NCBI GenBank assembly: GCA_000002445.1
Contig: AL929603.2
Span: 1,000,673-1,064,672, forward strand
Length of the DNA stretch: 64,000 nucleotides
Direction: 5' to 3'
Origin: Trypanosoma brucei
Lineage: Eukaryota
Part shown: piece by piece, positions 59,409 through 60,690 of the stretch
How the letters are laid out: every line of letters starts with the position of its first letter
How positions within the stretch are numbered: position 1 is the first letter of the stretch
Notes under the pieces: model-generated
Database searches by the model: none
What the model saw: only the letters and a program-made list of their open reading frames with translations
Told to the model about the DNA's origin: nothing
Made by a program: the position numbers and the translations under genes

Positions 59409-59641
59409 ATAATAATAATAATAATAATAATAATAATAATAATAATAATAATAATAATAATAATAATAATAATAATAATAATAATAATAATAATAATAAT
59501 AATAATAATAATAATAATAATAATAATAATAATAATAATAATAATAATAATAATAATAATAATAATAATAATAATAATAATAATAATAATAATAATAATA
59601 AATAATAATAATAATAATAATAATAATAATAATAATAATAT
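59409..59641 (+). repeat. Long (TAA)n microsatellite, about 78 units, at the 5' edge of the 70-bp repeat array.
   Basis: Direct read of aataataata... with a single 1-nt interruption near 59600. It produces the poly-Ile, poly-Leu and poly-Asn six-frame ORFs. Confidence 0.95.
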
Positions 59642-59699
59642 AAATATAATAATAATATTAATATTATAAATAATAAAATGATCATAATGATGGTAATAC

Positions 59700-60527
59700 A
59701 ATAACTAGCAGAGTGTGTCGTGAGTGTGCATATACGAATATACTATACGAGCAGTAATGATAATGATAATGATAATGATAGGAGAGTGTTGTGAGTGTGT
59801 ATATACGAATATTATGATGAGAGCAGTAATAATAATAATGATGATGATGATAATTATAATAGGAGAGTGTTGTGAGTGTGTGTATACGAATATTATAATA
59901 AGAACAGTAATAAATATGATGATGATAATAATAACAGGAGAGTGTTGTGAGAGTGTGTATATACGAATATTATGATGAGAGCAGTAATAATAATAATGAT
60001 GATGATGATAATTATAATAGGAGAGTGTTGTGAGTGTGTATATACGAATATTATAATAAGAACAGTAATAAATATGATGATGATAATAATAACAGGAGAG
60101 TGTTGTGAGAGTGTGTATATACGAATATTATAATAAGAGCAGTAATAATGATGATGATGATAATGATAATAATAGGAAAGTGTGGTGAGTGTGTAGATAC
60201 GAATATTATAATAACACCAGTAATAGTAATAATAATAATAGGAATGTGTTGTGAGTGTGTGCATATACGAATATTGTAATGAGAGCAGTAATAATGATAA
60301 TAATAATAGGAGAGTGTTGCGAGTGTGTGTATACGAATATTATAATAACACCAGTAATAGTAATAATAATAATAATGATAATAGGAGAGTGTTGTGAGTG
60401 TGTGTATACGAATATTATAATAAGAACAGTAATAATAGTAATGATAATGATAGGAGAGTGTTGTGAGTGTGTATACACGAATATTATAATAAGAGCAGTA
60501 ATAAATATGATGATGATAATTATAATA
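59700..60527 (+). repeat. Tandem array of about 11 T. brucei-type 70-bp repeats (70-84 bp units) in + orientation, toward the telomere. The assembly gap truncates it.
   Basis: The repeated unit is (TAA/TGA)n ATAGGAGAGTGTTGTGAGTGTGTATATACGAATATTATAATAAGAGCAGTAATAA, with variants ggaaagtgtggtgag and ggaatgtgttgtgag. Confidence 0.9.
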
Positions 60528-60627
60528 NNNNNNNNNNNNNNNNNNNNNNNNNNNNNNNNNNNNNNNNNNNNNNNNNNNNNNNNNNNNNNNNNNNNNNNNN
60601 NNNNNNNNNNNNNNNNNNNNNNNNNNN
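60528..60627. other. Assembly gap: a run of 100 N.
   Basis: Direct read. Confidence 1.
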
Positions 60628-60690
60628 AGGATTAGGATTAGGATTAGGCTTAGGATTAGGATTAGGATTTTGGTTACTCGGTTAGGGTTA
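60628..60690 (+). repeat. Variant telomere-like hexamers, (TTAGGA)~6 with one TTAGGC, degrading into ..ggttactcggttagggttaa.
   Basis: Direct read: aggattaggattaggattaggcttaggattaggattaggattttggttactcggttagggttaa. Confidence 0.85.

Follow-up and report, generated by a model that had tools for sequence, protein, structure and literature searches.

A canonical expression-site telomere of Trypanosoma brucei carries its ESAGs in one orientation, followed by an array of 70-bp repeats and then by one variant surface glycoprotein (VSG) gene that lies 200-1590 nt from the telomere repeats. The 70-bp (or 76-bp) repeats upstream of VSGs are long described (Liu 1983; Campbell 1984; Aline 1985; Hovel-Miner 2016), and a title of 1984 names (TAA)90 within 76-bp repeats, so that, as far as that title goes, (TAA)n flanked by 76-bp repeats has been on record since 1984. 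On the other side of telomere-proximal VSGs, 3' of the gene, a 'TTAGGG-like' tract has been described (Hall et al. 2013). Downstream of VSG221, in an expression site of strain Lister 427, this tract comprises 10.5 degenerate repeats of the form T2AG G/A G/A/C (Glover, Alsford and Horn 2007), and all mapped de novo telomere additions fell within it (Glover 2007; confirmed 2013), the seeding of telomeres by a T2AG3-like tract being an experimental result for the VSG221 site only. Here we analyze a 64,000-nucleotide stretch of T. brucei DNA (contig AL929603.2 of assembly GCA_000002445.1, positions 1,000,673 to 1,064,672), hereafter the window, in which a 70-bp repeat array runs into a 100-N assembly gap and telomere-like hexamers begin directly behind it (59409-60690).

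The window corresponds to the right-hand end, already published, of chromosome I in the T. brucei brucei TREU927 reference, because its telomere-proximal VSG and an ESAG1 (39136-40122) are both 100% identical to TREU927 proteins and its last nucleotides are (TTAGGG)82. We consider it probable that the locus preserves the two boundaries that are standard for the gene-conversion cassette of a telomeric VSG, and that the unsized sequencing gap falls exactly between them. On the 5' side, the boundary would be formed by a genuine, telomere-directed 70-bp array with its usual (TAA)n expansion, and the 3' boundary would be formed by the usual degenerate TTAGGG-like hexamers, followed in turn by GC-rich blocks in T-rich spacers, 29-bp repeats and (TTAGGG)n. 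The feature is a known one and not new, since every component of it belongs to a known class.

The 70-bp repeat array, the gap and the hexamer tract

The proximal side of the locus opens with a (TAA)n tract on the plus strand (59409-59688) that degenerates toward the 70-bp array and to which Tandem Repeats Finder (TRF) assigns 93.7 copies with 93% matches. Its perfect portion consists of (TAA)64 at 59410-59601 and (TAA)12 at 59603-59638, separated by one extra A. An earlier reading of this DNA, made from the letters without database searches and referred to here as the sequence-only reading, had given the tract as (TAA)78; the tract is present, but an exact count yields 76 perfect triplets in total.

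The array itself occupies 59687-60527 on the plus strand and contains about 11 units of 66-81 nt, as judged by TRF, unit alignment and nhmmer. TRF reports a period of 75 and 11.2 copies, the anchor ACGAATAT recurs 11 times at a spacing of 66-81 nt, and an nhmmer search with a profile made from the array units recovers 10 complete units and a further 2 partial ones, without exception on the plus strand, at E=1e-15 to 1e-19 per unit. The units are near-identical to the published 70-bp units of BES1, and they share the strand of those units and of the forward 'Dimer' oligo; in the 70-bp repeat literature, the opposite arrangement is the one termed reversed relative to transcription. An internal control is available within the window, where a profile search places single minus-strand 70-bp units at 49205-49253 and 52587-52634, upstream of minus-strand VSG pseudogenes, and a weak minus-strand unit at 55396-55421. 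The array is directed at the telomere, as the sequence-only reading had claimed along with its count of about 11 units, because its strand equals that of the BES1 units and because this internal control of minus-strand units at minus-strand VSGs agrees. A 158-bp dimer occurs twice in the array without any difference, as units 2-3 and again as units 4-5 (59805-60120; TRF period 158), which indicates a very recent internal duplication.

The array is cut off by a run of exactly 100 N (60528-60627), the only N run in the window. One hundred N is the AGP/INSDC convention for a gap of unknown length. Both flanks of the gap end inside repeats: the last array unit breaks off part-way through (...GATAATTATAATA|N), and the first hexamer of the distal contig is likewise incomplete. 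Exact counts thus agree with the earlier description of a 100-N gap between the 70-bp array and TTAGGA hexamers.

The distal contig begins on the plus strand with a TTAGGG-like head tract (60628-60690) composed of AGGA(TTAGGA)2 TTAGGC (TTAGGA)3 at 60628-60669, after which the sequence reads TTTTGGTTACTCGGTTAGGGTTA; beyond its hexamers the head tract comprises a degenerate stretch resembling the 29-bp repeat and then TTAGGGTTA. Five TTAGGA and one TTAGGC make up 60632-60667, and no TTAGGG occurs inside the hexamer run. Searching for TTAGGATTAGGA with at most one mismatch returned five hits, all of them within 60632-60667, against 0.24 expected by chance. The run is far in excess of chance, and the telomere-like hexamers that had been noted directly after the gap are present.

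A tandemly duplicated telomere-associated module

Between the hexamers and the real telomere lie 2.88 kb of non-telomeric repeats that are 49% T. The telomere itself, (TTAGGG)82, occupies 63509-64000 on the plus strand (TRF, 82 copies, 99% matches), and its G-strand reads 5' to 3' up to the end of the window. Self-comparison and global alignment resolve the intervening DNA into two collinear copies of one module of about 1.3-1.6 kb, at 60691-62276 and 62277-63526, each of which carries four GC-rich blocks and ends at a subtelomere-to-telomere junction. Module 1 (60691-62276, plus strand) is T-rich, has its blocks anchored at 60930, 61140, 61519 and 61783, and closes with a pre-telomeric tail plus the fossil of a telomere junction (62243-62276). 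Module 2 (62277-63455, plus strand) has its blocks anchored at 62444, 62626, 62839 and 63012 and closes with the same pre-telomeric tail; it is followed by 2.4 copies of the 29-bp subtelomeric repeat (63456-63524, plus strand; TRF period 29, 97% matches), a repeat attested by the title of a cited paper. The two copies are 66.9% identical, compared with 46.5 +/- 1.2% for shuffled sequences, and their tails are 86-100% identical. The distal 2.9 kb is one module, tandemly duplicated.

The blocks align as eight copies of a conserved element, ...GATGCAGCGGCTGTTTTATTATGCGRACCCTAACCCTCCTCCCC...CTCCAG, with a GC-rich core of 63-74 bp and a spacing that is mostly 173-264 bp. Each of the eight also contains an inverted telomere motif (CCCTAACCCT; 60919-63065), preceded by a conserved GATGCAGC(G/T)GC... 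segment that in three of the copies makes up a 10-nt palindrome, TGCAGCTGCA.

The junction between the two modules reads ...GGTGTTTCGGGTTAGCGGGTTCGGGTTAGGGTTA|ATTTTTTTC... and appears to be a hybrid. Its left side (62243-62276) is identical to the terminal junction (63493-63526) at 34/34 nt, and its right boundary (GGTTAGGGTTA|ATTTTTT) is the boundary of the TTAGGA tract with module 1, an 18-nt sequence, GGTTAGGGTTAATTTTTT, being present at both 60679 and 62265. Because the junction at 62243-62282 equals the terminal junction on the left and the head-tract boundary on the right, the duplication of the module may have come about when the first of the terminal TTAGGG repeats recombined with the internal TTAGGG-like head tract, through unequal exchange or through break-induced copying. 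This argument from the hybrid junction is no more than suggestive, and we know of no earlier description of such a module duplication for this chromosome end.

This architecture bears directly on the hexamers, in whose TTAGGA and TTAGGC variants the sequence-only reading had seen the scar of a healed break. Trypanosome telomerase adds T2AG3 (Glover et al. 2007), yet the run is free of TTAGGG, and degenerate hexamers of the same class recur at other telomeres. A break healed by telomerase would be marked by perfect T2AG3 joined directly to non-telomeric DNA and forming the chromosome terminus, whereas the tract is followed by 2.88 kb of structured repeats and has its proximal junction hidden in the gap. 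Because it stands at the head of a tandemly duplicated module, it is probably a structural part of the subtelomere, and its reading as a fresh scar is not supported. The hexamers appear to be a recurrent, homogenised subtelomeric element and not a break mark peculiar to this end; within the proposed mechanism they would be an old, homogenised and recombination-active part of the subtelomere and not the scar of a recent break.

What the gap may contain

The content of the gap is the least certain part of our interpretation. That no VSG follows the array, as had been noted before, holds for the sequence as assembled: when the VSGs of the window were run by tblastn against 60628-64000, nothing better than E=1 came up, and the same interval contains zero copies of the VSG 16-mer of the 3' untranslated region (3'UTR). 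We lean toward a gap that holds no intact VSG and consists of additional 70-bp units and degenerate hexamers, that is, an empty cassette slot, and within this case a true break-and-heal fossil would account for perhaps a third or less. Such a slot agrees with the chromosome I paper, whose abstract reportedly names the inverted VSG (55570-57183) as the telomere-proximal one. In a nanopore assembly of strain 427, 7/15 expression-site contigs break inside 70-bp repeats, and telomeres without flanking VSGs exist. The sequence-only reading had offered two explanations, a VSG hidden in the gap or a VSG-less end, and both are possible; its claim of a scar is the part that is not supported. The sequence does not choose between the two explanations because the 100 N are a placeholder and both flanks are truncated inside repeats.

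Several observations weigh against the interpretation that we prefer. TTAGGG-like repeats are known 3' of VSGs and would be equally expected if a VSG cassette lay in the gap. The 18-nt boundary on which the hybrid junction turns is half telomere hexamer and half T-run, and 1/300 mononucleotide shuffles reached its local alignment score. Bent DNA is reportedly a property of the telomere-associated class of minichromosomes, which the GC-rich blocks in AT-rich DNA resemble (see below), but a crude test detected no helical phasing of T-tracts, the relative power of T-tract spacing at 10-11.2 nt being 0.96, against 1.19 +/- 0.20 for shuffles.

The alternative that survives best is that the gap conceals an unassembled telomeric VSG cassette, comprising more 70-bp repeats, a co-transposed region of about 1.5 kb, a VSG whose 3'UTR is normal, and the beginning of the TTAGGG-like tract. 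The two canonical boundaries stand on either side of the gap, correctly ordered and oriented, the 100 N carry no size information, and 70-bp repeats are a known point at which assemblies break, all of which would fit such a cassette. The distances fit less well: the hexamers lie 2.88 kb from the terminal TTAGGG repeats, whereas the VSG-to-telomere distance is 200-1590 nt in 17 Lister 427 expression-site clones. A unique cassette of about 3 kb would moreover be expected to assemble in a clone-based Sanger project, and a hexamer tract of about 100 bp is no expected barrier to reads. The reported naming of the inverted VSG as the telomere-proximal one likewise speaks against a further VSG. We hold a hidden cassette to be a tenable minority explanation; should it nevertheless prove correct, which we rather doubt, the locus would be a conventional, if ESAG-degenerate, telomeric VSG locus.

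A second possibility, the second explanation of the sequence-only reading and one that we consider unlikely, is a VSG-less end created when a double-strand break fell within the 70-bp repeats or just beyond them, with loss of the VSG fragment and seeding of telomerase on, for example, the GT-rich core of the repeats. It would further involve decay of the new tract to TTAGGA/TTAGGC and its displacement to an internal position by a telomere recombination that captured the distal modules, a sequel that we find equally hard to credit. G-rich and T2AG3-like sequences do seed telomeres in T. brucei, and its subtelomeres are fragile (Glover 2007, 2013). At least one clear fossil telomere junction (62243-62276) indicates that telomere tracts do become internal at this very end. 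The run is nonetheless without TTAGGG, and the same G-to-A change in 5/6 units indicates a variant that was amplified and not one that arose by independent decay. The same degenerate class occurs, moreover, at telomeres that kept their VSG, so that no healing event is needed, and the junction that would prove one would lie inside the gap.

More doubtful still is a direct fusion, inside a gap filled by repeats only, of the 70-bp array to hexamers seeded by telomerase on the GT-rich core of a unit, with the telomere relic later buried by modules added in tandem. If true, such an array-hexamer fusion would be a natural, stably inherited record of the loss of a telomeric VSG by a break at the 70-bp repeats. 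To our knowledge, engineered strains are the sole setting in which the break-and-heal outcome has been observed to date, and the fusion would then be a rare genomic fossil.

Least probable is an assembly artefact in which the telomeric contig of 3.4 kb comes from a different chromosome end or from the second homologue of chromosome I and was placed here only as the best end available: self-BLAST finds no unique sequence that the two sides of the gap have in common, the genome holds many copies of such telomere-associated repeats, and the orthologous T. equiperdum end diverges structurally after the first 5 kb of the window, but 70-bp array, TTAGGG-like tract and telomere follow one another as expected, the G-strand points outward, and the placement has been unchanged in the reference since first publication.

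Chromosomal setting and comparison with known telomeres

The layout of the window departs from that of a canonical bloodstream expression site. Pfam scans place on the plus strand an ESAG8, several ESAG2/3-like VSG_B proteins, three ESAG1 genes and other ESAG-like genes, whereas three genes or pseudogenes for VSGs (49497-50912, 53285-54457 and 55570-57183) occupy the minus strand, with near-canonical 3'UTR 16-mer copies just below the minus-strand VSGs. An ingi-type retroelement without long terminal repeats, found on the plus strand and encoding endonuclease, reverse transcriptase and RNase H, separates the last ESAG1 from the inverted VSG block (41474-46500) and marks the switch point from plus-strand ESAGs to minus-strand VSGs. 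The ingi-type element and the three inverted VSG genes or pseudogenes precede the array, and as assembled no VSG follows it. The abstract of the chromosome I paper is said to describe one end at which genes and pseudogenes of the VSG and ESAG families extend over 50 kb, with a telomere-proximal VSG unusually oriented away from the telomere, and the window matches that description.

The assembled VSG closest to the telomere (55570-57183, minus strand) encodes 537 aa with a VSG_B N-terminal domain and a VSG C-terminal domain (Pfam E=5.7e-78 and 1.4e-21). It appears intact, is directed away from the telomere, lies 2.2 kb before the 70-bp array on the opposite strand, and is the gene that matches CAJ16740.1/XP_001219221.1 of T. 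b. brucei TREU927, labelled 'VSG, atypical, putative', at 100% identity. Its terminus, ...SFIVNNKLALIAAAFFSLEAFQNCKDF, is atypical for a glycosylphosphatidylinositol (GPI) signal, and its 3'UTR 16-mer is near-canonical with 1 mismatch (TTATATATTTTAACAC, at about 55512 on the minus strand); both features are consistent with the database label 'atypical'.

A unique spacer (57184-59408) separates this gene from the repeats. It contains no minus-strand 70-bp unit by nhmmer with the 70-bp profile, and it carries a minus-strand gene relic at 58062-58533, of which a second copy lies at 47331-48375 (80% identity between 58276-58533 and 47944-48203 by self-BLAST). In one relic copy there is a weak resemblance to a glycosyltransferase domain of the PLOD type (E=0.0012), which does not reach the cut-off of Pfam. 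A 70-bp or (TAA)n element stands about 0.85-0.9 kb above each copy, which puts both relics where a VSG would usually be found, and the (TAA)n tract is homologous in position to the minus-strand 70-bp unit at 49205-49253. Two explanations of this arrangement were rejected. Simple inversion of a segment containing 70-bp repeats, co-transposed region and VSG, or of the VSG segment alone, cannot by its geometry yield a minus-strand VSG, a spacer and a plus-strand 70-bp array in that order; and the (TAA)n tract is not the remnant of a minus-strand 70-bp unit of the inverted VSG, as its plus strand reads TAA and not TTA. A scan of 57000-64000 against Rfam returned zero hits.

Six loci reached through ESAG1 homologues in the T. 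b. equiperdum IVM-t1 and T. equiperdum OVI assemblies were compared with the window. One of them, at about 890-895 kb of IVM-t1 CM010672.1 (positions 15898-20984 of locus L003), is syntenic with window positions 1-5097 at 96.7% identity. Beyond these 5 kb the two ends differ, the T. equiperdum contig running for about 72 kb more with another ESAG arrangement. Except for three inverted 70-bp units in one locus (L002), the six loci contained no 70-bp arrays, GC-rich blocks or TTAGGR runs, nor any telomere-associated sequence.

The importance of these observations is small beyond curation of the reference genome, and the sequence-only judgement that either of its explanations would be biologically interesting was overstated for a chromosome end so long in the published reference; a 2026 pangenome preprint is based on the same old TREU927 assembly. 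What the gap contains decides whether chromosome I of TREU927 has a telomeric VSG slot that is empty or a silent telomeric VSG that is missing, and it affects the counts of telomeric VSGs and of possible donors in the strain behind most analyses of the VSG archive. The module duplication, for its part, illustrates that internal TTAGGG-like tracts appear to recombine with terminal repeats, beyond their role as back-up seeds.

Set beside the published 70-bp (76-bp) repeats upstream of VSGs (Liu 1983; Campbell 1984; Aline 1985; Hovel-Miner 2016), the array in the window shares 66-81 nt units in tandem, telomere-directed arrangement, a GT-rich core (GAGAGTGTTGTGAGTGTGT), a ACGAATATTATAATAAGAGCAGTAAT segment, a spacer of TRR triplets and a long pure (TAA)n at one edge. 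Unlike those repeats, it is, as assembled, followed by no VSG, the nearest one lying 2.2 kb before it on the other strand. The hexamers, compared by class description with the VSG221 tract (AJ271641 nt 211-322), likewise have the form T2AG G/A G/A/C, stand in G-strand orientation and are internal to the true telomere. In contrast to TTAGGG-like tracts elsewhere, the tract is visible only from the middle of a hexamer onward, its upstream side being the gap, and its distance of 2.88 kb from the telomere repeats exceeds every VSG-to-telomere distance in the 17 Lister 427 clones.

The region distal to the hexamers finds its closest counterpart in minichromosomes. Minichromosome telomeres that lack a VSG reportedly consist of GGGTTA repeats, a 29-bp repeat and GC-rich repeats of about 74 bp with AT-rich spacers of about 155 bp. 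The window shares this order of GGGTTA, 29-bp repeat and GC-rich direct repeats in AT-rich DNA, with blocks of 63-74 bp at a spacing of 173-264 bp. Unlike those telomeres, it belongs to a megabase chromosome and adjoins 70-bp and not 177-bp repeats, TRF detecting no array with a 177-bp period in 50000-64000, and its telomere-associated region comprises two tandem modules with an internal telomere relic. This last arrangement recalls the X-(TG1-3)-Y'-(TG1-3)-Y' subtelomeres of yeast, in which tandem modules are separated by short internal telomere tracts thought to be due to recombination between terminal and internal repeats. The likeness is one of analogy only, lying in the combination of tandem modules with internal telomere tracts, whereas the sequences are unrelated and the modules in the window contain no open reading frame.

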